This document shows, one piece after another, positions 17,799-59,519 of a stretch of DNA of 64,000 nucleotides. The stretch is taken from the sequence record PP496998.1. The stretch is one strand, 5' to 3'. The notes below the pieces were generated by a model that was not told the origin of the DNA, ran no database searches, and saw nothing but the letters and a program-made list of their open reading frames with translations. Both the position numbers and the translations under genes were made by a program. This DNA comes from Escherichia phage EC.W14-3. Positions within the stretch are counted from its first letter, which is position 1; every line of letters begins with the position of its first letter.

Positions 17799-20700
17799 TC
17801 ACTCCTTAGGTCGAACTCTTACACGGAGTCTCGATTGACGCTTACTGCGTTCAAGCTTCTCTGACAATGAGCCACGTTTAATCTTAGGCTTCCCTTCGTC
17901 ATTAAACTTCTCCAAGAACTGCAAGTACTCAGTACGATTTGTTGTCTTGTAAGAAGGAATCTTGATATCAGGGTTCTCTTCAATCACACGTCTCATCTTC
18001 GCTACATCATCCCTACCAAGCAACTTACTCTTAGCCTGTTCAGCTGTAGAACCAAAGATCTTCTCCAGTGCTCTGGATTTGTTACCACCTGCGGAAGAAG
18101 CACCAAGTTTAGCAATGGCAGAGTAATCATCAGCACTAAACCAAGCTACTGGATTATCACCATACTTCTTCTTGTTTTCAGCAGCAGTCTGCAATGCACG
18201 TACAAAGCGACGGTTGTTACCAGCCTTATCTGCACCATGAACCCTGTCTAAAACTTCAGCCACACTAGCTAATTCATCCAAGCTCTTCCCGCTTAAGAAA
18301 GCTTTCTCTACTTTATCAGCAAAGACCTCTTCCTGTTGTTTAATGCTTTCCAAGATATCAGAATTTGCTTGAGATTTTTCATCATCAGGTAGAGCAGAAC
18401 GAATCTTCTCCATCTCCAATTCTTCCTCTTGCAGTTTCTTAATATCAGAGTCAACCTTCTGAGCCTCCTCAATAGCCTTCCTAGTATCCGCATCCAAGTT
18501 ATCAAGCTTACCTTCAGTATCTCCAGTAACCTTAACAATCTCTTTCTCGATAGGAGTCATTGATTCGTACTTCTTAGCAAACTTCTCAACATCAGCTTCG
18601 ATACGAGAACGAGCATTCTGATGTTCAGTAGGAGTCATAGGTTTCTCAAGAAGTGCATAACGGTTGTCCATATAGGAACCAGCAAACGCTTCAGCATCCT
18701 CTCTAGATATGCCCTTATCTTCCATAGTACGCATCAGGCGGCGATGAATGTCATCACGTTGACGTTGTACTGCCATAAGATCATTCTCACGCTCTTGGGC
18801 CGCTTTAAGCTCTTCACTGCGCTTAACTCTCTTGTCCACATCAAACTTACGGTTCATCTCTTCCGCTTGCTCGTACATCTTGTTCCACTTGGCCTGACGA
18901 GCATCTTCCTCTGCATCAGTTAAACGACGCTGACGATCAAGGTAATCTGACTCGGCGTTGTGGATACGTTCAATGTAACTACGGAACTTCTCTGGAGGAA
19001 CTGGAGAGTTCTTGTCATGGTGAGCAGCCAACTGTTTCAATGTACGAGATTCCTGAGCCTCACGAACAGGTTTAGGTAAACCTTCCATCATCTTCTCAAT
19101 CTCACTCTTCTGAGCTGCAATAGCCTCTAAAGTTTTACGTTCATTCTCAACAGCAGCCTTAGCATCTGAACGAGCCTGAGCCTTTTTCCTGAGGGTAGCA
19201 AGACGTTCTTCACGAGCCTGTAAGTGCTTAGCAGCAGCTTCGTACTGAGAGTTCTTGTTAGCTTTGTTGAAGGCATTCACTTCTCTGTTGTAGGTGTTAA
19301 TAAACCCATCCCAAATATCCTTCATCTGACCAACTTCCAAAGCCTCTTCCCTACCAGCCTTCTCTGAAGATTTAAACTTCCCATCTACAAAGTCATTCAT
19401 CAGCTTACGCATAGCATCTTTCTGAGCAGGACGTAAAGGTTCTGAATCAATCAAAGCATCAATCTCAGACTGAAGCTCTTTCTTCTGATCAACCAGTTTA
19501 GGAGCATCTTTCTTATCGAAAGCTTTGTTCTCTTCTAGAGCTTGTTGGTACAGTCTATCAAACTCATCCTCACGCTGCTTCTGATACAACCTTTCAGCAC
19601 GACGTTTCAGACTATCCAAGTTAGTTACGTTCCCACCTAAACCTTTCTCTTCAGCACGTAATGCCTTAGTAGCAATGTCTTCTGGCAGACCACGTTCTTT
19701 AACCCATTCAGCAAAATTAGTTCGTACAGTGTTGTTCTTAGCAGTAGCAATACCTTGCTGAGAGGCCAGCTGGTTACGAGCCATTTCTTCATGACGTTCA
19801 GTGTTGATAGCATTATCTTCCTGACGAATACGACGCATCAGTTCCTTAGGATCGCCTTTATAAGCCAAGAAGTTTTCAGCAGTAGCTTTAGCTTTAGCAG
19901 CCTTAGAGTACAGAGAACGAGCAAAGCGTTCTGCACGATCTTTAGTAGCCTGACGAGCAGCACTAGACATAGCAGCTAAACGTTCTACACCACTTGCCGG
20001 TTTAACGTCCTGTACAGCTTCCTTAGGAGCTTTAGGAGCACGAGCAGGTAACGGCTCAGCTTTGACTGTTGGTTCCTCTACGGTTGGTTCTGGAGCCTGT
20101 GCGGCCTCTTCTTGAGCACGTTGCTGTTCCATTGCACGACGCTCCTCTAGAGGGTTACGAGCAGGGAGAGGTTCAGCCTGTGGAGCTTGTTCGACCGGAG
20201 CTTCTTGAGCTGCTGCTGCCTCTTCTTCAGCTCGACGCTGTTCAGCCTGACGGATAGCGCGTCTTTGCGCAACTAAATCACGAGCTGTGAGAGGGGTTTC
20301 TTGAGGAGTAGAAGAAGGAAGATTTTCTTCCGTCACAGTACTAGAAGAAGGCTCCCGAACCGGTTCGGTTTCCACGTCATTTTGCGTCTTAAATTTAATG
20401 TCATCAACAACTGGTTCTTCTTCCATCTTAGCACGAGCTTCATCAGCAGTAGATTTAGCACGAGCAACTTCCAAATCACCACGAGCCAGAGAGCGGATAG
20501 CTTCACTATTAGACTCTTGTTGCTTAACACGTTGAGAACGGGCACGCTGAGAAGAGAAGCGATTCAGAGCATATTTAGCAGCACCGAGAGTGTTCATCAC
20601 CAGACTAGGAGAAGAAGCCTCACGGAATCCATCATCAGTCAAGGAAGTCCAACCACGATCTTGGTTGCTCATGAATTTAGCTGTATTGTTCAGAGTATAA

Positions 20701-26801: not shown

Positions 26802-27836
26802 TTATTGTATACTCCTGAATATCTTTCTAGCATCTAATATTGGAATACTTAACCCGAGGGCACCACCCCCTCCTAAATCATATTGACTACTCCAAGAGTA
26901 AATCATCCTTCCGAAACCTGTACCGAAAGAAGAGCCATTCATCATGTGAGATCTTGTGTGTTGAAAATACCAACCACTAGCCTTGCCTCTTATTGCTCCT
27001 GCTCCGTAAGATAGTGGTATCATTGGATAGGCCAGAGATGTGTTACCGCCACTCATAGGCATAAATCCCTCAACACTAAAAGGGGTTCTATATGTAGAAA
27101 ATACACACTGAGACCCATTTGGAGAGAAGATATTTAAACCACCATTGTGGGTTGGTACTCCAGAACCATCACAGAAGACGGCAATTCTAACACCACCAAT
27201 GTATCCTGTTTGGTTTGTGTTACCATTATCATGAGACCTGTTCTGGTACACATAAACAACCCTATTGGATGGATTGTATAGCAGCCCTGCTCCACCGTTA
27301 CTCCAATTCGCGTAGACAGTTGCTCGGCTCATATCAAAACCACCAATATCTGGTATTTGAAGAGAACCATTTATGTCACCCTCCCAAGCCCAAATACATT
27401 GACCAACAACCCCAGAATCGGATATTGAGAAATAGTCAGCAGAGTTGGAGAATGTGATTCCATAATTCCTGTTAGCTCTAGGCCATATTTGATACACATT
27501 AAAAGCCATATCAAATACCCAACCGTTTACATTATAGTCCATAGTAACTCTGAAGGTTGAGTTATTAATAACAGATATATCCGTTATCCAATACACATCA
27601 GACGTTACGTTAGGAGGTATGTATCTCTCCCAAACAACAGACCCTGTTGGAACTACAACTATCTGACCACTACCATCCCAACCACTTATAGGCAAGTCAC
27701 AGGTATTTCCACTAAAAGAGAAATTCCCACTGACTCTATTTCTGAGTTGAGGGAATGTGCTACCACTATCGATGTAAATATCAGCAGGTGCCGCTGGACC
27801 CGGACCAACCGGGCGTGTCCATATTCCATATGCCAT
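26802..27836 (-). CDS. virion structural protein
   Basis: 344 aa, RBS GGGAG, in structural operon. Confidence 0.45.
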   Translation of the reverse strand: MAYGIWTRPVGPGPAAPADIYIDSGSTFPQLRNRVSGNFSFSGNTCDLPISGWDGSGQIVVVPTGSVVWERYIPPNVTSDVYWITDISVINNSTFRVTMDYNVNGWVFDMAFNVYQIWPRANRNYGITFSNSADYFSISDSGVVGQCIWAWEGDINGSLQIPDIGGFDMSRATVYANWSNGGAGLLYNPSNRVVYVYQNRSHDNGNTNQTGYIGGVRIAVFCDGSGVPTHNGGLNIFSPNGSQCVFSTYRTPFSVEGFMPMSGGNTSLAYPMIPLSYGAGAIRGKASGWYFQHTRSHMMNGSSFGTGFGRMIYSWSSQYDLGGGGALGLSIPILDARKIFRSIQ

Positions 27837-27837
27837 G

Positions 27838-28806
27838 TTACCAACTCCCTATTCTTATGCGAAGAGTTCCACTCCCATCATAAAAATCTATTCTATTACC
27901 ATTCATCCACAACTGAGAACCACCTGTACCACCCATAACAAAATCACCACCAACAGTAAGTCTCCAGTTAGAACCCCACATAGAACCAGCAGTGATTTTA
28001 TCCGCTGATAAGTTCTGAATCTGAGCATTGGAGATAGATACGTTATCAATCTGTGCCCATTGGATCCTAGCGTTGGCAATCTGAGCAGTTGTGATGTTGA
28101 CGTTCTTTATGTCAGCGAATTCCATCCTAGCTCGCCCACCCTCAAATACGAAGGGGGTATTCCCAGAGCTGCCATCACCAACAATAAATTTGTTAGCTGT
28201 TACTTGGAATTGACTGTTTGTTCCGTTGTTAGTTAACTTGACCCCAGCATATCTTCCGTTGACTGTAGAGTTAACACCCCACGTAGCTTCATACTCAGAG
28301 AGTTTCATATACTGAGAAAGGCTTCCGTTGATATTTTGCAGTTCTGTCTGAACAAGAGCAATCTCTTGACCTTGATCGTTAACAATACCTTCTACTGTCT
28401 GAATTTTAGTTGTGTTACCTTCGATGCTGGTCTTAAAACCAGATACAGTGCTTTCTAGCTTCACAGGGGGTTGAACAGAATTATCCCAAATGTCCTCAGT
28501 GGACAGGTTCCCCATCTGGGTTTGGATATCTGCAATAGCTGTTTCTATCTCTGTAGTAATTCTATTCTCAAGCTCATCAAATTGTAGATTCATTGCATTA
28601 AGAGCTTTAATACGAACATCAATCTCTTCGTGAATTTCATCTATAGCTTGGAACATTTGGTTAGTAGCTGTGCTAACTTTTTGTAATTCATCATACACGG
28701 CTACGTTATATGTTTCTGTGTCCTGTACATTATTGAGAAACCCAACGTTGTACGGGAGTGTGGTGTTGTTGCGACCAGTGTTCTTACGAAAACCACCTGC
28801 ACCCAT
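27838..28806 (-). CDS. virion structural protein
   Basis: start moved to MGAGGF (RBS GGAGG); track N-terminal extension would overlap a terminator hairpin. Confidence 0.45.
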   Translation of the reverse strand: MGAGGFRKNTGRNNTTLPYNVGFLNNVQDTETYNVAVYDELQKVSTATNQMFQAIDEIHEEIDVRIKALNAMNLQFDELENRITTEIETAIADIQTQMGNLSTEDIWDNSVQPPVKLESTVSGFKTSIEGNTTKIQTVEGIVNDQGQEIALVQTELQNINGSLSQYMKLSEYEATWGVNSTVNGRYAGVKLTNNGTNSQFQVTANKFIVGDGSSGNTPFVFEGGRARMEFADIKNVNITTAQIANARIQWAQIDNVSISNAQIQNLSADKITAGSMWGSNWRLTVGGDFVMGGTGGSQLWMNGNRIDFYDGSGTLRIRIGSW

Positions 28807-28849: not shown

Positions 28850-31800
28850 TTATCTCCGCCCGCCAACAGCAAACTCTATCGTTAAACCATTGATAGCAGC
28901 ATTACTATTAACATCATTATCTATAACATTATAGAAAAGGTATGGATGGTTCAGTCTCACCGAGACATGCCTGTCAACACCGATCGTATATGTCTTAGAT
29001 GTGTGTGGGTGTCCATATTCATTTGAGAATTGACTACCACCAGCTTCAAATATGTAAGTACCTGAACCAGTTGTCTGAGGTCGGAACCTGTTAATATGCT
29101 TCTGATTCCACTCATTCGTCACATTATCAAAATCTATACCAGTCCTCTCCAACCTCATTTCCAGAGGCTTCTCTATAACAACATCATTTAGCCTGTCATA
29201 GAAGTAATCAAGAGCACCTACATCCACTTGATAGAATCCCTTCAAGAATGAACCTACTATCGTAACCCTCTGTCTAAAGTTTGTTGCATCCTTTCTCCAA
29301 ACGAGTTCTTTAATAGATGGGTCATCCCAAGTGATTTCTTGGAAGTCAGACCAGATTGGACCTCTTTCTAAAACAGGAGGATCAACCAGACCAATACACT
29401 GAGCATATGGGATAGTACGGAATGACCAAGTATCAAACTCGTAGTTCCATACAGCAGCTTTAGTACAAGCGAAGCTTTCTTTTGGCTCTCCCGGACCTAC
29501 GTACAGAACCCAAACTTCTTTCTTATCCTGATGCAAATGCACTCGAGTTGCTAGAGGGTTAACCAGACATACCTCGTTAATCAGCATATTCTTAACACGG
29601 TTAGATGCAATTGACTTCTTAGTTGCACCGTTGTGTAAGATTACATCGTTCTGAGTAACTACGAAGTGACTACCTTCTACTTCAACCACACACTCAGGAG
29701 CAAGGATACCAGAGTCGTTAAAGAGCTTCTTGAACATTAGAGGTTGGTACGTGTTATTAGTCGGAGAACCAATATACGTTTCAAACTCTGTATAAACGAA
29801 CAAGTAATCTTTAAGAGGTAGGATATCAATCAAGCTACCATTAGAATCTGCTAAGTCAATGTAACCAGCATACCCATTCTCTAGAGCCTGAGTCTGCCCT
29901 ACGATGTTAGAAGCTAAGTCCGAAGACACAACTCGATCATAGGCAAAGTCATCCCACAGTGTAGGAGCCTTGTTCTCATTGGCAAAGTTAGACCAACGAA
30001 GACGAAGCGGGTAGTTAGTGGTAACACCAGAAGCATTAGCCTCTCTCATATTCAGAGCAAAAAGACGGTTGTTAAAAGATCTTACTCTCTCACATTTCCA
30101 GTTAAACTTCTTGACTGAAGGGTTTCCATCACTATCCACCACTGTTTGCTCACCCCACCCCGGAAGGTCTACAAAGTATTCTGATTCGAATTCTTTTACC
30201 TGAGGAGTTTCATAGTGAGTTGTAGCAACTGCACAGTTAGAGATAACAGCGTGATACCAAGGGTAGTCATCAAAAGCATCGTAATCCTTCTGAGTCATCT
30301 GACTGACAGTACATGTTACGTTAATCTCTCCTTTACGAAGAGCAACCAGTTTGATAGATTTACCAGTGACTGAAGTTGTAGAAACATAACCAGTTTTATC
30401 AACAGACCACTGATAAGAGTACTCACCTTCTGGAGAAGCTGTGGCTGTAATGACAACCTCTTCACCAACATCAAGAGAAGCGCTGACAATATCTAAGGTT
30501 ACAGATGACAAAGGGGTTGCCAGTAAAGAAGCTCTTGCAAAACCTTCAATGTCATTCACGTTAGAGTAGTCATAGAAGTTATTACCTTCGTACATCCCTG
30601 ACGTATCAATACCGGATGTAGGCTCAGCAAAATAAACCGTCTCTTCACTTTCAGGAGGAGTTACTACTTCTTCCTCTTGAGTTTCTACTGACTCTGACAC
30701 AGGAGCAGCAAATGCCATAGAACTTGTTCTCATTGTTCTTCCAGCTAAATCTACACGTACAGTACAGACAGCAACCCTGTTGCCTTCTTCAGTGGTAGCT
30801 GTAATCTCAGTAAAGCCAGCAAGTAAAGCGTTGATCGTCCCTTGTGTGCTAGTCCCTGATACTGTTGCAATATTTGGATTAGAAGAGGTCCAAGTAATAT
30901 TTTGATTAGGGGCGTTAGCAGGAGAAAGGGTAGCAGTTAAGATATACTGAGAACCTCTACTCACAATAACATCTGACTGGCTTAAAGAGATACTATCAAT
31001 CTGAGGGATGGAAACAACCTCACAAGAAGCAGTCTTAGTTCCGTTATCAGCAGTGATTGTTACATTACCTTCTCCATTCGCTGTAATGACAGCAGTTAAA
31101 GAATTGGCGTTAGGGGTTACGGATACAATAGAAGCGTTATTGCTGGACCAAGTTACAGGAGTCTTGCCAGTAACAGCCGTGAGAGTAGTAGTCCCTCCTT
31201 TACGAATTGTAACAGTGTCTTGACTCAAGAAGATGCCTGAATCACCGTCGATGATATTAACAGCAATCTGAGCCACTACGGATTCGTTGGCAGTAGAGAT
31301 AGTTACTACAAGATTACCTTCTTTCTCAAAAGATGTTAGAGTAGCAAGTTTAGAGTCACTAGGGTCTACCGTAATACTTCCATAGGATGAGTTACTAACC
31401 TCCCAAATAAGATCAGTATTGTTAGCATCAGCAGGGAGAAGAGAAACCTCTAGATTCTTGGTCTGATTGAAGTTCATTGAGATAGTTGATTCTTTAGGAA
31501 CGATCTGAGAAACAACTGGATAAATCTTAATTGAGGCAGAAGCCTTCTTAGTGACTGTAGCAACCTTACGGCTAATATCAGTCAAGCTTTCATCTGTCAG
31601 TTTATATAACTTCTTATCCGTACCTACAACAAGAAAGCTATTACCTGCGCTATAATAATCGAAAGGCATAGAAACGAAAGACAGAGGGGTTAAATCCTTA
31701 TCTTCATCTACATAAGAAAGAGGGGCATTGCCCCCCGTCTTAAATACTCTCTGCTCAACAAATCGAGCATTTATAGCATTAGTGAAAGCATTAGGAGCTA

Positions 31801-33485: not shown

Positions 33486-33512
33486 TCACCAGTTTTACTC
33501 CTAAAAGCCCCC
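33486..33512 (-). terminator. hairpin after tail fiber gene
   Basis: agcccc-cgaa-ggggct hairpin; short U-run on minus strand. Confidence 0.4.
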
Positions 33513-33525
33513 GAAGGGGCTTATC

Positions 33526-35694
33526 TCACTTCTCTGCTAACTTCGCTTCTAGAACTTCAATACGCTTCAGCAGATCTTGAACAACCTGCATGGTATCTAA
33601 AAGCATTGGAGTTGCATCCAACTCTTTCTGTTCCTGCTCTACCCCATCGTTGTCATGGAATTTACGAGTTTTAACATAAAGAGGTTCAACTTTCTCTGCC
33701 TGCTGTGCAATGATACCACGACGAGTTCTTCCTTGATTATCATTGTTGTACACAAACGATTTGAAATCCAAACCTTTTATCGCACGAATTGCTTCATCAG
33801 GAGAGATATCTTGGATGTTATGTTTCAACTTTTCATCAGATACAGGATTCATAGCAAGAGTATAAGTTCCGGTTGAACTTGGCTGCCAAGTGTAGTAGTA
33901 AATCTCGTTCCTGTTTGGTCGGAGAGTTAAACGACAACCATATTTGTTGTCTTCATCTCCCGAAACATGCCAACAGGAATCAGCAAAAGATCCAGCATCA
34001 TTGTGAATCATCCCTACATGGGTAGTAGTTTTGTATCCACCTTGGGATGCTTGGGAAGCACTCAGTATAGAGTTAAAAGAGTAGTTAGCACCAACCCCTT
34101 GGTTGTCTATAGAAAACGTCCCTCTGCGACTTCCTGTTTCACTCCAAGACATCAATGTTCTAGACCGAGCAACATATCTATCAGAGTTCAGGGTTCCAGA
34201 ATCGTCAAAAGCTAATTGCTTGGTAACTCCTTTGGTTTTATTATAAACATTGATAATCCCATAATAAGCTCCGTCGATATAAGCATCAGTTTGGAGCGTA
34301 GTAGAGGCTTCTACTTCTGAACCTATTTTATATTCAGAAACAACTGAACCGCTAGTTACCCTAGTTCCACCAGCAGGACGGTTTGCATCACTGTTAATAA
34401 CTGACCAAGAGGTGTTAGCAGCAGTAAAACCTCCATGAGCACGAATAGTCCAAACACCTACAAAGTTACGGGTCAGAATCTCCTCAGTGGAGCGACCATA
34501 AATAGGACTGGAACGCGATGCGTCAAAGTTTGTGGATATGTATTTACCTCCAGCCCCCACTGGAGCCACATCGTCTGTAGAGGTGATTGATTGAATTGCC
34601 CCGTTAGTCGCCACCTGCCCCGGAGCGGAGGCTAGTGTTACCATTGTGTGAGGGGACGCATATGTGATATTCGGTGCAGCAGAATCAAACACTTGGCCAT
34701 TTGCAGCAGAATTACCACCATCACCACGGCCATATAAAGCTCTCAGTGACCCCTCTTGGATACCATTTCGGTCAGGAACACGGAAAGTTGTTGTACCATT
34801 TCCGGTAGAATACCTACCCCTCTGATAGATATTAGACAACCAAAGAGAGTCTTCAATTGGGGATAGCAGTTGTGCATAAGCCCATAAATCTGGGTAGTCA
34901 GCACGATTCAAAAGCTGCCCATCCGACACAACCTCAAAAGCTGGGATGAAAGCTCGACTGTCACGTAAATGGAAATCACCAATACCAAAGTTAGAGATAC
35001 CGCTCATCGTAGGACCACCAGAGCCACCACCACTGTTTCGAAGCTGTCTCAAAGTAACCGCATCATAATCACCAACTGCATCAGGGACAGTTACTGGTTG
35101 AGTGAAAGTAACTTTCTGTGTGAGCTGTTTGATATCAGAGTTAATCCCTGTACGAGTAACACCTACCGTACGACCTTTAGAGTCTTTAACATAAGAACCA
35201 ATTGCAGCAAAAGGCAAATCCTCAATCTCAGGACGGTAACGTTTAGAATAAACTGGATACTTAGTTTCTACCCCAGAGTCATTCTGGTCAACAACCTGAA
35301 GACGACCAGCAGAATGAATCTCTACACCTTGAACTGAAGAGGCATAACTACCAATCTTGATTGAGTTATCAGTAGTAACTTTCATCATATCAACTGATTC
35401 TACACCATTAGCTCCAGTAGAACGGAATGGGGTATCATTAACAACCCAAGGGTCTTCTCGGAACAGCGCACCAGACATAATAGGTTGAATCGAATCCAGC
35501 ACAAAATCTTTAGATGCACCCTCTGTTTTAGTTTGATAGGTAGCAGCTGCGTCGGTTTTCTGTAAATATTTTCCGGTGAGGTTAATAGCTCCAGTCTGTC
35601 CATCTACAGTAGAAACCCCAACAACAGCCGCGTCTCTGGTTACAACCACATGAGGCATCATTATACCAGATTTGGGCATTAATTCTCTAGACAT
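33526..35694 (-). CDS. tail fiber/spike with C-terminal intramolecular chaperone (peptidase S74-like) domain
   Basis: C-terminus SDEKLKHNIQDI...RRGIIAQQAEKVEPLYV...LLKRIEVLEAKL matches auto-cleaving chaperone domain pattern. Confidence 0.8.
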   Translation of the reverse strand: MSRELMPKSGIMMPHVVVTRDAAVVGVSTVDGQTGAINLTGKYLQKTDAAATYQTKTEGASKDFVLDSIQPIMSGALFREDPWVVNDTPFRSTGANGVESVDMMKVTTDNSIKIGSYASSVQGVEIHSAGRLQVVDQNDSGVETKYPVYSKRYRPEIEDLPFAAIGSYVKDSKGRTVGVTRTGINSDIKQLTQKVTFTQPVTVPDAVGDYDAVTLRQLRNSGGGSGGPTMSGISNFGIGDFHLRDSRAFIPAFEVVSDGQLLNRADYPDLWAYAQLLSPIEDSLWLSNIYQRGRYSTGNGTTTFRVPDRNGIQEGSLRALYGRGDGGNSAANGQVFDSAAPNITYASPHTMVTLASAPGQVATNGAIQSITSTDDVAPVGAGGKYISTNFDASRSSPIYGRSTEEILTRNFVGVWTIRAHGGFTAANTSWSVINSDANRPAGGTRVTSGSVVSEYKIGSEVEASTTLQTDAYIDGAYYGIINVYNKTKGVTKQLAFDDSGTLNSDRYVARSRTLMSWSETGSRRGTFSIDNQGVGANYSFNSILSASQASQGGYKTTTHVGMIHNDAGSFADSCWHVSGDEDNKYGCRLTLRPNRNEIYYYTWQPSSTGTYTLAMNPVSDEKLKHNIQDISPDEAIRAIKGLDFKSFVYNNDNQGRTRRGIIAQQAEKVEPLYVKTRKFHDNDGVEQEQKELDATPMLLDTMQVVQDLLKRIEVLEAKLAEK

Positions 35695-39156: not shown

Positions 39157-39669
39157 TTAAGCAGGTGTTACACCAGTAAAAGTGCATGTTGCATTGATGG
39201 ACGGGTCAGCTGTCAAACTTGCTTGAACAGTAACTTCGCCACTTGCAGCAGCATCTAAGGTTAACGCACCAGCGGCGCTTACTGTACCGGCTTCTGTAGG
39301 AGTTACAACAAACGTGTAATCCGCAGCAGCAGAGTTAGTTACAGTAAACATGGTAGTGAAATTAGTGGAAGAACCACCAGTTTTACCCGTAATTGGACCC
39401 TTAGCTACAATAGTAGGAGCAGGAGCAACAATTTCAGAAATGGTTGCTGTACCAGAAACACCTTCTAAAGTTGCAGTAATGGATACATCAGTGGATTGAG
39501 ACGCACTCGGAGCAGTATACAAACCAGACTGAGTGATAGAACCACCTCCTGTCACTGACCAAGTAAAGCCAGTTGTTTCGGTAGAACCATCACTTTTCTC
39601 CGCGCTTGCAGTGAACTGCCGAGTAGCCCCTGTCTCTAGACTTGCTAAAGACGCAGGGCTAACAGTCAC
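39157..39669 (-). CDS. Ig-like (BIG2) domain ORF, likely C-terminal extension of capsid protein via -1 frameshift
   Basis: -1 frame relative to capsid gene, open across capsid stop, no own RBS, GTG-only start; BIG2-like sequence. Confidence 0.55.
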   Translation of the reverse strand: MTVSPASLASLETGATRQFTASAEKSDGSTETTGFTWSVTGGGSITQSGLYTAPSASQSTDVSITATLEGVSGTATISEIVAPAPTIVAKGPITGKTGGSSTNFTTMFTVTNSAAADYTFVVTPTEAGTVSAAGALTLDAAASGEVTVQASLTADPSINATCTFTGVTPA

Positions 39670-42102: not shown

Positions 42103-44346
42103 TTAGTTTTTACTTCCAAGACGTTTGCCTGGAATCCGTGAATCTTTGAGAGAAGCTTGTTGCTCTTTCTTAGTTACATTAGCTTCTTTCTTTTGGAGTT
42201 CCAAAGTTTTATCCTGAACACGAGCTTGCTGAACAATCTTCTCTTGGTCTACCTGATGCTCCATAACCATCTGCAATTCTTTCAGTACAGACTCATACTG
42301 ACGGACCTGCTGTTGCATAAGAGCTAACTTGTGCTTAGCTTGTTCCAGAGTAGCATTGTTATCCTCTTTACGGTTTTCCAGAGTCATAGCATCTGCTGCA
42401 TTTTCTTGCTTGAACTGCAACTCTTCCTGACGCAGACTTAATTCATCCGCAGCTTTCTGCTGTTCGAATGTAGTACGTTCACGTTGGTCGAATGCATCAG
42501 CAATCATCTTCTGAGAAGAAGCCTGTACGTTCTCAACCTGTGCTTTAGTCATCTCGAGTTGGAGGATTTCCATTGGAGACGGCTCAGGAGGCTGATACTG
42601 TTCCAGAGGCAGTAAGTATTTATGAGTGTCCTTAATACCCATCAACTCAAAGATCTGTGCAGTCATGTAACGGTCTTGCTCCAAACCGAAGAGAGGTGCT
42701 AACTGTGCATCTGCTGCAATCAGCTGTTTCAAGCTAATCAGTTTCTGTGCACGTTCTGCTTTCTCATTAGGAGAGATAGCTACAACAACTTGAAGATTGT
42801 GACGAGCTGGCAATTGTTTCGGATTTACCTGAACCATACCACGAGGGGTTTGTACCTCAATAGGAACTTCACCATTTTCTCTGATAAGGCTGTAAATACC
42901 ACGCATCAATTCAACCATACCATTGTGAGCAATGTTACGACATACCATACGGAGACGGTTCTGTGCAGCATTCATCATCAAGCCTACAGTTGCATAAGCG
43001 TTATCATTCTTAAACACATCAGGGTTGATACCCATGCCTAGTTTGGTTACACCTGTACGTGTCTCTTTAAGCTCCTCAGACATGCCTAGGAGGCCGTCAA
43101 TACCTTGAGGTAGGTTATGGTATGGGAACAGGTCAATAGCGTCCTGACGTTCCATTTCAACCACTCCACCGGGACGGTTATCAAGCAGAGAGCGACGGTC
43201 GTATGCACCAACAAGAGCTTTGTATCGACCATAGTTAGCATTGTTGACGTTATCAATATAACCACGAACTAACGCGGTACGTAAATCTTGAATATCTTTC
43301 GTAATGTCATAGACCGATTGACCATAGAAGGAACCCGGAATCGGATATGGGCAGAAGGTTACAAACGGAATGTGAGTTACTTCTTCAGTGTGAAGGATAT
43401 GCTCACCAGCTTGGATAACCTGATAGAGTTTAGACTCTTTATTCTTATCTAGAACACCAGTACGAATGTAGTGCTCGTAAACCCAAACCATAGAAGCGAT
43501 ATCTTCGGTATCTGTACCAATATCAGCATCAATATCTTGACGCCAGTCAGTACGAGACCAAGCAACTGTAGATTGAGTAGTATCCATCGTGTCTGTCCAG
43601 TCGTTGAATGCTTCAATCTCATCTTTAGGGAAGCCCATAGCAACCAGATCTTCTTTAGAACGACGTACACGATGACAGAAGTATTGTGCATCTGCAAAAG
43701 AGGTAGCATGTTCATCAACAAAGATTTGCTCTGAAGGAACATATTCAACTTTCACACGTTTAACAGTTTGTTCGTAAGTAACTTTAACATCGACTGTACC
43801 GTCTTCATTTTCTTCAGTGAAGACTTCCAGATTCTTGAGTCCACCAGCTTCTAATCCCTGAACATATGCAGCCAATGCTTCCGGTGGTACACCTTCAGCT
43901 TCTTCAGTTTGAGTAGAAGTTTGTTCATCCCAATAATACTTGATAAAAGAGTTACGAGTAACTAGACATTCTTGTGCAGCAGAAGAGATAATATTGTATC
44001 CCGGATTATCACGCAGAAGAATTTGGTTAACTAATTTAGTTGCTACATCAGCAGCATCAGAATCCTGTTGGTTGTCAGCTACGAAAGTAACTGCTTCATC
44101 ACCAGAACAGAATACGTTAATAATATCTTGCAATGTACCGTTAACAGATTCCCAAACAGTACGATCTACCCAACTAGAGCTGCCAGCAGTTACTGGTGCA
44201 GGTAAGTTACCATAGAAATATTCCCAAGCTTCACGAGCATAGCCCTTAACAGCCATGTCCACGTAACCTTGAGCGTAATTAAAACGACGTTGAAGGTCAA
44301 CACGTAACTCGTCCAACACCTCTTCACTATATTTTTGCTTAGCCAT
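42103..44346 (-). CDS. portal protein
   Basis: 747 aa directly downstream of terminase large subunit; RBS GGGAGA. Confidence 0.7.
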   Translation of the reverse strand: MAKQKYSEEVLDELRVDLQRRFNYAQGYVDMAVKGYAREAWEYFYGNLPAPVTAGSSSWVDRTVWESVNGTLQDIINVFCSGDEAVTFVADNQQDSDAADVATKLVNQILLRDNPGYNIISSAAQECLVTRNSFIKYYWDEQTSTQTEEAEGVPPEALAAYVQGLEAGGLKNLEVFTEENEDGTVDVKVTYEQTVKRVKVEYVPSEQIFVDEHATSFADAQYFCHRVRRSKEDLVAMGFPKDEIEAFNDWTDTMDTTQSTVAWSRTDWRQDIDADIGTDTEDIASMVWVYEHYIRTGVLDKNKESKLYQVIQAGEHILHTEEVTHIPFVTFCPYPIPGSFYGQSVYDITKDIQDLRTALVRGYIDNVNNANYGRYKALVGAYDRRSLLDNRPGGVVEMERQDAIDLFPYHNLPQGIDGLLGMSEELKETRTGVTKLGMGINPDVFKNDNAYATVGLMMNAAQNRLRMVCRNIAHNGMVELMRGIYSLIRENGEVPIEVQTPRGMVQVNPKQLPARHNLQVVVAISPNEKAERAQKLISLKQLIAADAQLAPLFGLEQDRYMTAQIFELMGIKDTHKYLLPLEQYQPPEPSPMEILQLEMTKAQVENVQASSQKMIADAFDQRERTTFEQQKAADELSLRQEELQFKQENAADAMTLENRKEDNNATLEQAKHKLALMQQQVRQYESVLKELQMVMEHQVDQEKIVQQARVQDKTLELQKKEANVTKKEQQASLKDSRIPGKRLGSKN

Positions 44347-55975: not shown

Positions 55976-56212
55976 GTGAAAGTTAATATTAAATCCGATC
56001 GTACAATGCTTCGCTTAAACAACATGAAGCCGGGCGTTCTATTTGAGCGTAAAGAATCCCTTTACATTAGAACCGACACATTGTACGCAGACAATTATGT
56101 CAACTGTGTTGATGTGGTAACTGGAAAGCTCATTCCTTTTAAACGGGATGAAGTCTGCCAAGTACGCAGCGATCTCCACATAACTAACATAGAGGCTAAA
56201 GATGAAGATTGA
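55976..56212 (+). CDS. small protein, paralog family C
   Basis: GTG start; MKPGVLF...LYIRTD...NCVDVVTG. Confidence 0.4.
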   Translation: MKVNIKSDRTMLRLNNMKPGVLFERKESLYIRTDTLYADNYVNCVDVVTGKLIPFKRDEVCQVRSDLHITNIEAKDED

Positions 56213-56459: not shown

Positions 56460-56678
56460 ATGGAAATTAAAGTAGTTGATTATCCTAAATATGCAAATGC
56501 AGAAGATGTTAAAGGTGGTGATGTTTTCTCTTACGACAGACGTTTCTGGCTGATGTTAGAAGATAAAACTCCCGATGGTTTATGTAAGGCCGCCAATCTG
56601 AACAGCGGTTCTGTTGAAGTCTTCGGTCTATCAACCACTGTTATGCCACGCCCTGATCTGTGTTTATCCCAAAAGTAA
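56460..56678 (+). CDS. small protein, paralog family C
   Basis: VKGGDVFS...FWLML...CKAANLNSG. Confidence 0.45.
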   Translation: MEIKVVDYPKYANAEDVKGGDVFSYDRRFWLMLEDKTPDGLCKAANLNSGSVEVFGLSTTVMPRPDLCLSQK

Positions 56679-57299: not shown

Positions 57300-57370
57300 A
57301 GGTTGGCGAATCAAGACCTCTGTGAAGCTCCGAAGAAATCAAGGCAGGTTCGACTCCTGCTCCCCGACCA
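57300..57370 (+). pseudogene. tRNA-like 3' fragment (T-arm plus acceptor-like end)
   Basis: GCAGG-TTCGACT-CCTGC T-arm then TCCCCGA-CCA; no matching 5' acceptor strand found. Confidence 0.25.
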
Positions 57371-57390: not shown

Positions 57391-57744
57391 ATGAGAAGCA
57401 TGGTTAAAGATTGGGTAACTAAATCAGGTCTTCGTGCTGTGATTATGCACATGAACGACTCCCACTTTTGTGGATATGTAGAGCTACCAGACAGCTTAAA
57501 ACATAAAAACTTCACCGGATATAACGGGAATGAAGAAGTTTGTTATGTAAGTGTTCATGGTGGTGTCACATGGCAAGATACCCTTGAAGAGATGGATGGT
57601 TTAGATACAATCGGATTTGATTGTGCCCATGCAGGTGATAAGACACGGTTCAACCCTAACGGGGTTCCAAGAACAGAAACGTTCTGCATCAACGAATGCG
57701 AACAAATGGCTGAACAACTAAGAGATCTCGAATCAAATGTCTAA
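57391..57744 (+). CDS. hypothetical protein
   Basis: internal ATG after GAGG RBS; track N-terminal extension would span the tRNA-like element. Confidence 0.45.
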   Translation: MRSMVKDWVTKSGLRAVIMHMNDSHFCGYVELPDSLKHKNFTGYNGNEEVCYVSVHGGVTWQDTLEEMDGLDTIGFDCAHAGDKTRFNPNGVPRTETFCINECEQMAEQLRDLESNV

Positions 57745-58341: not shown

Positions 58342-58417
58342 GCGCTCTTAGCTCAATGGATAGAGCAGTAGCCTTCTAAGCTATTGGTTACAGGTTCGAG
58401 TCCTGTAGGGCGCACCA
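58342..58417 (+). tRNA. tRNA-Arg (anticodon UCU)
   Basis: 76 nt cloverleaf: 7-bp acceptor GCGCTCT/AGGGCGC, D-arm GCTC-AATGGATA-GAGC, anticodon loop CTTCTAA, T-arm ACAGG-TTCGAGT-CCTGT, encoded CCA. Confidence 0.9.
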
Positions 58418-58423
58418 CATTTA

Positions 58424-58538
58424 GGGCTAGTATGGGTGCGGCACCAGAGTTAGTGTATCCCTGTTGAGGCAAGTGCTTTTATAACAGTGGGAATTACTTT
58501 CTTAGTGAGCTTCTGGTTCGATTCCAGATAGTCCACCA
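58424..58538 (+). other. tRNA-like element with consensus T-arm, non-canonical overall
   Basis: TCTGG-TTCGATT-CCAGA T-arm plus TAGTCCACCA end; 5' acceptor partner imperfect; about 105 nt. Confidence 0.25.
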
Positions 58539-58557
58539 AATCTAATAGGAGGTAATT

Positions 58558-58857
58558 ATGAGTTGGGGTGGTGTAATATCCTTAATCTGTATCTTCCTTG
58601 TCTGTATAGCCCTTACAGGCTGCGTACAGAGTCGTCCTGATGGATGGTGTGCAGTAGCAGTGGAAGGTGTTTGTGTTTCTCGCTGGCATAAAGGTAAGAA
58701 GGTTCCTTCTGGTGAAATTGATATGCGCTGGAACGGAGCAACCTGCTCTAATGCTAACCCTTCTATCAACGAAGAGAAATCTACACCGGATAATGTTGTG
58801 ATTGATACAGCGTTGTGGTGTGGTGGCTCTGTAACAACAACCGGTAAGGAGTGGTAA
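58558..58857 (+). CDS. lipoprotein (possible superinfection-exclusion / receptor-masking protein)
   Basis: AGGAGG RBS; signal peptide with canonical lipobox LTGC (MSWGGVISLICIFLVCIALTGC); Cys-rich mature region. Confidence 0.55.
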   Translation: MSWGGVISLICIFLVCIALTGCVQSRPDGWCAVAVEGVCVSRWHKGKKVPSGEIDMRWNGATCSNANPSINEEKSTPDNVVIDTALWCGGSVTTTGKEW

Positions 58858-59114: not shown

Positions 59115-59336
59115 ATGAAATTAGATTCTAAACAATCACTTAAAACTGTTGAACTATCCACCCTTCCAAATGGAAGTATTTTTGGTCATGATAAACACTT
59201 CTGGATTAAAACAGACTACTTGAACGATGGGTATATCACCTGTGTCAATCTTTGGAATGGCTCAGTGGATGGCTACCGCCCTAGTGCAAAAGTAGTCCCT
59301 CAGCCTGATGCAAAAGCTATAGGTTTGGTCTACTAA
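59115..59336 (+). CDS. small protein, paralog family C
   Basis: LPNGSIFG...FWIKTD...CVNLWNG. Confidence 0.45.
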   Translation: MKLDSKQSLKTVELSTLPNGSIFGHDKHFWIKTDYLNDGYITCVNLWNGSVDGYRPSAKVVPQPDAKAIGLVY

Positions 59337-59345
59337 GGAGTTCAT

Positions 59346-59519
59346 ATGAGCTGTTATGGTGGAGGTGAAGTTTATGATGACGATGATATGGAATCTAATG
59401 GGGAATGCCCTGATTGCGGGTGTGAGACGTTTGATGGTGTATCAGTATATCCTGCCTGTAGTTACTCACCAGTGATCTGTAAAACATGTGGTGATCAGCC
59501 ATGTGACCAATCTTGTTAA
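59346..59519 (+). CDS. small Cys-rich protein (57 aa)
   Basis: AGGAG RBS; CPDCGC...CKTCGDQPCDQSC; not in track. Confidence 0.35.
   Translation: MSCYGGGEVYDDDDMESNGECPDCGCETFDGVSVYPACSYSPVICKTCGDQPCDQSC

Follow-up and report, generated by a model that had tools for sequence, protein, structure and literature searches.

What does a small predicted lipoprotein do for a lytic phage and, if it masks a receptor, which receptor is it? These questions are raised by the locus at positions 58558 to 58857 of Escherichia phage EC.W14-3 (PP496998.1), within a 64,000-nt stretch that is referred to here as the window and to which all coordinates apply. A preliminary description, made from the letters alone, had proposed a superinfection-exclusion or receptor-masking factor. 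This idea is backed by homology to Rtp45 of Escherichia phage Rtp and by the co-occurrence in the same genome of a homologue of the receptor-binding protein (RBP) that Rtp45 blocks, and on these sequence comparisons, the protein probably acts as an exclusion factor directed at LptD. The window is 100% identical to PQ030848.1 (Escherichia phage EC.W8-1; window position = record position − 7244), and the record taxonomy (Gordonclarkvirinae; Kuravirus) makes this a phiEco32/SU10-like podophage with a prolate head. The gene and its parts are as follows:

58558..58857 (stop codon included), + strand: Rtp45-family (PF24052) lipoprotein precursor gene, 99 aa (list of open reading frames (ORFs), phrog, Pfam, PDB sequence search, BLASTP)
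58547..58552, + strand: Shine-Dalgarno sequence AGGAGG, 5-nt spacer to the ATG (direct sequence reading)
58558..58623, + strand: predicted signal peptide (residues 1-21) and lipobox Cys22 (codon 58621-58623) (PS51257 pattern; Cys22 invariant in the family alignment)
58624..58737, + strand: conserved Rtp45-homologous core, residues 23-60, with the Cys31/Cys39 pair (alignment, PDB sequence match, BLASTP)
58738..58821, + strand: residues 61-88, an insertion not present in Rtp45, of variable length and sequence (two family alignments)
58822..58854, + strand: conserved C-terminal tail ..GGSVTTTGKEW, with the counterpart ..GSKEWN in Rtp45 (18-sequence alignment)

Membership of the protein in the Rtp45/PF24052 family is close to certain. 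It scores 122.1 bits against Pfam PF24052 ('Phage_lipoprotein'; cut-off 27, E=9e-36), with residues 3-99 covering the whole model (1-80 of 80), and it matches phrog_4281 (E=1e-34), a family with no assigned function; these scores and the conservation of the ORF in roughly 85-95 related phage genomes put it well outside what chance would produce. The sole meaningful match in a PDB sequence search is 9rps_D ('Phage lipoprotein'), which is the Rtp45 of phage Rtp (E=6.7e-14), and BLASTP against Rtp45 gives 46% identity over 56 aa (E=2e-17). The Cys31/Cys39 pair (Cys-X7-Cys), invariant in 18 sequences, is the equivalent of the Cys30-Cys38 disulphide described in the Rtp45 structure (bioRxiv 10.1101/2025.07.07.663478). 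The family is genuinely small: a word-indexed protein search returned 9 close relatives, and an exhaustive search of 1.84 billion clustered proteins returned 14 representatives. Armadillo-repeat matches in the PDB were set aside as spurious: they are sums over many repeats, each below threshold, against residues 63-98. Naming this a lipoprotein is in itself nothing new, given that the phiEco32 orthologue phi32_106, which lies directly after the tRNA, carries the existing annotation 'putative phage lipoprotein'.

The ATG is the first start codon downstream of an in-frame stop and opens a frame of 99 codons that ends in TAA. The perfect AGGAGG that the preliminary description had named stands at 58547-58552, 5 nt before this ATG; within positions −16 to −4, such a sequence is uncommon, being found at 5 of the 269 mechanically called ORFs of at least 50 aa in a window-wide count. 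Its account of the protein likewise holds: the signal peptide ends in the lipobox L-T-G-C (residues 19-22), with the N-terminus matching the PROSITE PS51257 lipobox pattern at Cys22, and the mature part is Cys-rich, with 77 aa after the lipidated Cys (78 aa counting it) and five Cys at positions 22, 31, 39, 63, and 88. The +2 residue, following the lipobox Cys, is Val and not Asp. The lack of an Asp at +2 is the pattern that goes with Lol-dependent sorting to E. coli's outer membrane. From the lipobox and the Val at +2, we infer export, attachment of lipid to Cys22, and Lol-mediated delivery of the lipoprotein to the outer membrane. Among the Kuravirus-type variants P0005, P0007, and P0008, some have a second lipobox-like motif further upstream (..IFIAC, Cys16) in addition to LTGC at Cys22, and the cleavage site could therefore differ between variants.

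Conservation is greatest in the Rtp45-homologous core and not in the insertion. Invariant in the 18-sequence family alignment are Cys22, Gly29, Cys31, Gly37, Cys39, Gly52, and Gly60, and the best-conserved stretch, CVxRWxxGxxVPSGEIDMRxxG, lies just C-terminal of the Cys31/Cys39 pair. The same alignment has a C-terminal '..SG....GKEW' in common between the Kuravirus protein and Rtp45, and the Kuravirus form is therefore produced by an internal insertion rather than by a C-terminal extension. The insertion of ~25 aa is bracketed by Cys63 and Cys88, which are either both present or both absent across the family; this co-variation points to a putative second disulphide that would close the inserted loop.

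The structure of the Rtp45 complex indicates what a protein of this kind can do. Rtp45 (~6 kDa) binds closed LptDE on the periplasmic side of the outer membrane, between LptE and LptM, and extends a long hairpin up through the LptD lumen, by which the extracellular loop EL4 is displaced outward by up to 20 Å (bioRxiv 10.1101/2025.07.07.663478). The RBP is thereby blocked in two ways, as the conformation is incompatible with its binding and the EL4 movement needed for the RBP-bound open state is prevented; the RBPs cognate to lipoproteins of the Rtp45 type are Rtp44 and RBP-Oekolampad (bioRxiv 10.1101/2025.07.07.663478). Phages with this Rtp44/Oekolampad-type RBP module have been shown to depend on lptD (PMC8594841). 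In the Kuravirus, the lipoprotein would be transcribed early with the sigma-70 block, translated from its strong ribosome-binding site, exported, lipidated at Cys22, and placed by Lol in the outer membrane's inner leaflet. There, it would bind the periplasmic side of the LptDE translocon for lipopolysaccharide, as shown for Rtp45 and expected here by homology. The conserved Cys31-Cys39 hairpin region would rise through the LptD lumen and shift EL4, such that RBPs of the DUF6453 type could not dock, and the infected cell, and later its debris, would no longer adsorb LptD-dependent phages. The phage's own progeny would be among those excluded, given the DUF6453 RBP homologue that its genome encodes beside a J-type needle. 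For phiEco32-like podophages in general, the O-antigen would be the first receptor and LptD the terminal one. The two genes of this partner module are located as follows:

26802..27836, − strand: predicted cognate RBP, a 344-aa DUF6453 protein homologous to Rtp44/RBP-Oekolampad, at the SU10 gp19 position (Pfam, PDB sequence match, Foldseek)
27838..28806, − strand: tail needle, equivalent to SU10 gp18, that carries a Phage_Tail_Tip domain of the lambda-J type (Pfam PF09327, 94 bits; J-like similarity)

When Rtp44 is used as a tblastn query, it recovers the expected siphophages together with near-full-length matches of 22-25% identity in many Escherichia podophages of 75-77 kb; in the window, the match is the ORF at 26802..27836 (−) (E=4e-15 against the genome). 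The product of this ORF scores 87.6 bits against DUF6453 (PF20051; cut-off 25), to which Rtp44 itself belongs, and residues 55-334 match the LptDE-bound Oekolampad RBP (PDB 9rpt_C, E=1.7e-9). Its AlphaFold2 model has a predicted local distance difference test (pLDDT) of 84 and a predicted template-modelling score (pTM) of 0.84, and in a Foldseek search with this model, the only PDB match at E<=0.001 is again 9rpt_C (E=2.3e-12, probability 1.00, target-normalised TM 0.80). The segment spanning residues 122-139 (NRNYGITFSNSADYFSIS) has several residues that are invariant in Gordonclarkvirinae-type homologues and aligns with RBP-Oekolampad; it is also the sole low-confidence part of the model.

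By order and size, the DUF6453 gene corresponds to SU10 gp19, which has the tail needle gp18 on one side and the ejection proteins gp20-24 on the other, and the needle gene lies immediately upstream of it in the late tail operon. The SU10 paper describes the needle as P22-needle-like with a beta-prism C-terminal domain. In a four-sequence database, the needle in the window matches the J-like tip proteins of T1 (E=5e-8), Bas25 (5e-9), and Bas01 (4e-4), with the alignments falling in their C-terminal part (last ~280 residues). In siphophages, the DUF6453 RBP is thought to occupy the distal end of the J-like protein. This siting, together with the J-type tip domain in gp18, means that gp18-gp19 resembles a 'J-distal fibre + RBP' module carried by a podovirus, and the needle at 27838..28806 is the probable docking site of the DUF6453 protein.

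Control genomes were searched in six frames with a Kuravirus-only DUF6453 profile and with the lipoprotein family profile. Receptors of the control phages are taken from PMC8594841, and the results are as follows:

AugustePiccard Bas01: receptor LptD (experimental); DUF6453 profile 7e-16; lipoprotein profile 6e-27
Rtp: receptor LptD (predicted; Rtp45 complex solved); DUF6453 profile 1e-15; lipoprotein profile 2.5e-28
VogelGryff Bas25: receptor LptD (complemented); DUF6453 profile 1e-15; lipoprotein profile none
T1: receptor FhuA; DUF6453 profile E>2; lipoprotein profile 16.8 bits on Cor
JulesPiccard Bas03: Cor-type locus; DUF6453 profile E>2; lipoprotein profile none
IsaakIselin Bas10: receptor YncD; DUF6453 profile E>2; lipoprotein profile none

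The Kuravirus-only DUF6453 profile thus matched 3/3 LptD-type siphophage controls and 0/3 controls with other receptors. The lipoprotein profile, which gives 7e-35 on this Kuravirus, matched only Rtp and Bas01 among the controls. In BASEL, the type of RBP locus agrees with the receptor without exceptions (PMC8594841).

Across 50,697 phage records sorted by the first word of the organism name, the lipoprotein and DUF6453 (Rtp44 as query) occur at similar frequencies: 270 versus 276 in Escherichia, 53 versus 64 in Klebsiella, 27 versus 30 in Shigella, and 7 versus 7 in Campylobacter. Within the Gordonclarkvirinae of E. coli and Shigella, 98 records have the conserved short tail fibre at >=60% identity, 91 have the DUF6453 protein, to which a 44% ECBP2-type variant is added, and 85 have the lipoprotein, besides variants at 58-60% (roughly 85-95 genomes overall). 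Both genes are also present in SU7 (genus Suseptimavirus). The lipoprotein and DUF6453 genes are therefore near-universal in E. coli Gordonclarkvirinae, and the suggestion that the former is an accessory gene falls away. Identities compared across the Kuraviruses reveal no clear co-variation between RBP type and lipoprotein type, nor is such a pattern to be expected of two proteins predicted to bind LptD from opposite faces. The Klebsiella Weberviruses carry both genes as well (lipoprotein and DUF6453 at 33493-33711 and 43319-44272 in MW722081 ZX2, and at 39319-39537 and 28897-29850 in NC_049840 FZ10). With a lipoprotein that aligns across the insertion and a DUF6453 gene in the same genome, these capsule-dependent phages may also use LptD.

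In light of these results, LptD is our slightly favoured candidate for the terminal receptor of Kuraviruses. With the same modest preference, we extend this model to the Gordonclarkvirinae as a whole (phiEco32-, SU10-, and ES17-like), which would combine LptD as terminal receptor with gp19 on a J-type needle and an early Rtp45-type lipoprotein of the long form, its gene separate from that of the RBP. The literature searched contained no proposal of LptD as the terminal receptor of Gordonclarkvirinae.

Several points weigh against an LptD-directed exclusion factor and its place in the infection of these phages. The n-region of the signal peptide, MSWGGVI, contains no Lys or Arg, which the preliminary description had missed, and it departs from the auxiliary PROSITE rule of a Lys or Arg within the first seven residues. 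The rule is typical of lipoprotein signal peptides rather than family-defining; all family members outside the Gordonclarkvirinae have at least one such residue in the n-region, and efficient export is therefore uncertain. The AlphaFold2 model of the lipoprotein is uninformative (pLDDT 43.5); AlphaFold is reported to fail on Rtp45 complexes (bioRxiv 10.1101/2025.07.07.663478). Identity to Rtp45 is 43-47% and confined to the core, the ~25-aa insertion with its extra Cys pair could alter binding, and exclusion by Kuravirus members is a function predicted from homology. The lipoprotein and RBP genes are separated by 31 kb and belong to different temporal blocks, whereas rtp45 and rtp44 are adjacent. 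In the Klebsiella Weberviruses, the two genes are likewise unlinked (~10 kb apart), and thus, a place beside the RBP gene at the J-like tip locus is a typical but not a defining trait of the family. The LptD-dependent Seuratvirus VogelGryff Bas25 (MZ501110) has a DUF6453 RBP at 17827-18792 (−). A six-frame search with the family profile did not detect an Rtp45-type lipoprotein anywhere in this genome. The pairing is therefore not obligatory, and Bas25 has either no exclusion or an unrelated exclusion protein.

Further counter-evidence concerns the receptor. BASEL 2025 places the terminal receptor of Gordonclarkvirinae at the core of lipopolysaccharide (LPS), contacted via short tail fibres, and the reported ES17-resistant mutants have lost the O-antigen rather than altered LptD. 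The latter is understandable because lptD is essential and O-antigen loss is an easy route to resistance. In SU10, gp19 is not among the 34 proteins detected in virions, whereas gp16-18 and gp20-24 are (PMC4281155 Table 2), and the SU10 virion structure paper makes no mention of it. If gp19 is a tip RBP, it must therefore be of low copy number or lost during preparation. Given its absence from the published SU10 virion analyses, the structural model of the SU10 tail tip may lack a component.

The failure to detect the DUF6453 protein in SU10 virions, together with the lack of linkage between its gene and that of the lipoprotein, also fits an alternative in which the lipoprotein blocks LptD solely against competing LptD-dependent siphophages (Rtp-like, Dhillonvirus, and Seuratvirus), with the Kuravirus itself making no use of LptD and the DUF6453 protein serving another role. 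O-antigen-dependent Dhillonviruses of the LptD type do have hosts in common with the Gordonclarkvirinae. We regard this as unlikely, as the DUF6453 gene directly follows a J-type needle gene in the late tail operon, is conserved throughout the subfamily, and encodes a fold that matches only the LptD-bound RBP, and as self-exclusion is the simplest account of why both the RBP and the exclusion half have been kept.

Divergence raises a somewhat less probable alternative, namely that the pair has moved to another outer-membrane receptor and that the lipoprotein, still an exclusion factor, binds a different beta-barrel or complex. Identities of ~25% to LptD RBPs and ~45% to Rtp45 leave room for such a switch, as does the clade-specific insertion with its extra Cys pair, and RBP modules in these phages are known to change receptor by exchange (PMC8594841). 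It is at odds with the restriction of DUF6453 and PF24052 to LptD-type phages among our controls and with the exceptionless match between RBP locus type and receptor in BASEL (PMC8594841). Conservation, moreover, peaks in the Rtp45-homologous core and not in the insertion, and the Klebsiella Weberviruses carry the same long form together with DUF6453.

The timing of expression bears on a third alternative. From ~48.6 kb to the window end (48.6-64 kb), the + strand carries many small ORFs, and the matching small-gene cluster of phiEco32 is experimentally of the early class and sigma-70 dependent (PMC8948821). Exact copies of the phiEco32 gp36-type middle/late element tAATGTAtA occur in the middle block on the + strand (5037 and 12080) and in the late block on the − strand (12008, 22259, and 39089); an exact-copy scan found none on the + strand of the 48.6-64 kb block. 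A sigma-70 scan around the lipoprotein gene gave fewer sites than shuffled controls and no convincing promoter directly upstream, and for this reason, timing was taken from the gene block and the gp36-type promoter map. On these two lines of evidence, we infer that the gene is expressed early, with the sigma-70 block of the phage. Its place in an early host-takeover block would suit a protein that binds LptDE mainly to stop or remodel LPS export as part of host takeover or envelope conditioning, with exclusion as a side effect. Rtp45 itself keeps LptDE closed, with its hairpin in the lumen, and displaces part of LptM (bioRxiv 10.1101/2025.07.07.663478), and the phage depends on O-antigen that is exported by LptD. 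This explanation is nevertheless improbable: there is no evidence of LPS-transport inhibition by Rtp45-type proteins, and in siphophages, the tie between the lipoprotein gene and the RBP gene speaks for exclusion as the selected function.

That the protein is instead an unrelated small lipoprotein, e.g., an o-spanin (Rz1-like lysis protein) or one with no receptor role, is highly improbable, as this has nothing in its favour beyond the small outer-membrane lipoprotein of a lytic phage and runs against strong and specific homology to Rtp45; the o-spanin candidate was rejected, the gene lying ~25 kb from the endolysin gene on the opposite strand in the early block, neither nested in nor beside an i-spanin gene.

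Returning to the LptD-directed exclusion factor, we next describe the surroundings of its gene, for which one upstream feature serves as a landmark:

58342..58417, + strand: tRNA-Arg(TCT), upstream of the lipoprotein gene (arranged likewise in Bas90, Paul, SU7, and phiEco32)

The preliminary description had placed the lipoprotein gene right after the tRNA. It is indeed downstream of tRNA-Arg(TCT), only not immediately so, as 140 bp separate the tRNA end from the gene start. The spacer between this tRNA and the ribosome-binding site (58418-58540) ends in a tRNA-like T-arm, acceptor, and CCA (..TCTGGTTCGATTCCAGATAGTCCACCA). ARAGORN at default settings and Rfam make no call in it, whereas ARAGORN at a relaxed threshold reports a 66-nt 'tRNA-Arg(tct)' at 58473-58538; the predicted RNA fold of the spacer has an energy of −37.7 kcal/mol (z=−2.1). 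The spacer is probably a degenerate second tRNA. It is kept in Bas90, is missing in phiEco32, which has a 22-bp gap, and is replaced in phage Paul by an HNH endonuclease gene. A further tRNA remnant may lie at 57344-57360 (+), where GCAGGTTCGACTCCTGC resembles a tRNA T-arm just upstream of the coding sequence starting at 57391; the scan flagged this site only as a minus-strand terminator-like hairpin.

The lipoprotein gene is flanked by a multi-copy family of ~75-aa proteins (55976-56212, 56460-56678, and 59115-59336, all +; phrog_6570/7832/16423). The small early ORF at 59115-59336 is paralogous to 56460-56678 (38% over 47 aa, E=1e-9) and to 55976-56212 (27% over 52 aa, E=2e-6). An acidic 57-aa protein with 9 Cys in CxxC-like motifs (phrog_13157) is encoded at 59346-59519 (+), three genes downstream from the lipoprotein; it may be a zinc-binding early protein. 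In the GenBank record PQ030848.1, both the lipoprotein ORF and the DUF6453 gene are labelled 'hypothetical protein'. Several small ORFs of the early block bear implausible automatic names there ('integrase' for 187 aa, 'autotransporter adhesin' for 84 aa, and 'terminase' for 121 aa), the nozzle and needle are each named 'tail fiber', and the short tail fibre is named 'baseplate'.

The main interest of these observations is that the lipoprotein, gp19, and the J-type needle together point to LptD as a testable terminal receptor in a therapeutically used group of phages. The therapeutic use of Kuraviruses, ES17 and SU10 among them, is under exploration, and current models assume the LPS core as their terminal receptor. 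If our proposal is correct, the receptor would be an essential and conserved protein, the SU10/BASEL model in which short tail fibres and the needle simply contact the LPS core or membrane would be revised, and a missing component would be added to the SU10 model of genome delivery. Cross-resistance and cross-exclusion with LptD-dependent siphophages would then be expected, with consequences for cocktail design and for the evolution of resistance. Among siphoviruses, N4-like phages, and Kuraviruses alike, the O-antigen-dependent phages would have LptD as a common terminal receptor ('glycan first, then its exporter'), in support of the pattern reported for N4 and DEV, in which a surface glycan is followed by the exporter of that glycan. 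If it binds as predicted, the lipoprotein itself would also be of interest for inhibitor design, as a natural ligand for LptDE on its periplasmic face.

Compared with known systems, the likeness to T5 Llp that was initially suggested stands as a functional analogy and not as sequence kinship. T5 Llp is likewise a small outer-membrane lipoprotein of a lytic phage; on the periplasmic face, it binds the receptor used by its own phage and renders the outer side unrecognisable, by which progeny are also protected from debris. A BLASTP comparison gives E=7.8, and hhalign aligns just 27 signal-peptide columns. The receptor does not carry over either: Llp targets FhuA, whereas the predicted target here, from homology to Rtp45, is LptD. 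The authors of the Rtp45 structure contrast its physical displacement of a loop with the long-range allostery of Llp on FhuA (bioRxiv 10.1101/2025.07.07.663478). Cor of T1/phi80/N15, an exclusion lipoprotein that is similarly small, has its gene at the RBP locus of T1-like phages, but it is tied to a different type of RBP locus and targets FhuA. Kinship with Cor was also rejected, as there is no tblastn match, the family profile reaches 16.8 bits on T1 Cor, and the best local BLAST alignment covers 19 signal-peptide residues.

On the side of the receptor, a parallel is offered by DEV, an N4-like Pseudomonas podovirus that uses O-antigen first and then LptD and whose J-like fibre presents an LptD-binding protein (PMC12892993). 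Its authors describe it as the first podovirus proposed to use LptD (PMC12892993). The gp56-gp55-gp54 fibre of DEV resembles the module proposed here in belonging to a podovirus, in the order of O-antigen and LptD, and in being J-like and carrying an RBP. DEV differs in virus family and host, and no exclusion lipoprotein has been reported for it. With Rtp44 as the tblastn query, there was no match in DEV or Litunavirus; gp54 itself was not compared directly.

Within the Rtp45 family, SE-Oeko (bas18_0026) and the Rtp45 homologues of AugustePiccard Bas01 and JeanPiccard Bas02 come from phages with an experimentally shown dependence on LptD, in which resistance maps to lptD. Unlike the Kuravirus gene, theirs are neighbours of the RBP gene, placed downstream of the J-like tip gene, and encode a short form (~75 aa). 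The Klebsiella Webervirus lipoproteins (vB_KpnS_ZX2 and FZ10) align over query residues 8-99, including the insertion region, at ~39% identity, in a siphovirus background and with a Klebsiella host. The closest long-form relative outside the Gordonclarkvirinae is P0010 (49% identity). Rtp45 itself (UniProt Q333D9; 9RPS chain D, bound to LptDE-LptM) has in common with the Kuravirus protein the PF24052 family, 46% identity in the core, the lipobox Cys, the Cys-X7-Cys pair, the C-terminal KEW, and a DUF6453 RBP in the same genome. It differs in coming from a T1-like siphovirus in which its gene is immediately upstream of the RBP gene, whereas here, the gene is in the early block of a prolate podovirus, 31 kb away; the Kuravirus form adds the ~25-aa insertion and second Cys pair, and its signal peptide lacks Lys and Arg. 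What sets this member of the known Rtp45 family apart is its podovirus genome, an early-block gene uncoupled from that of the RBP, a second Cys pair in a long form of the protein, and an n-region without charge.

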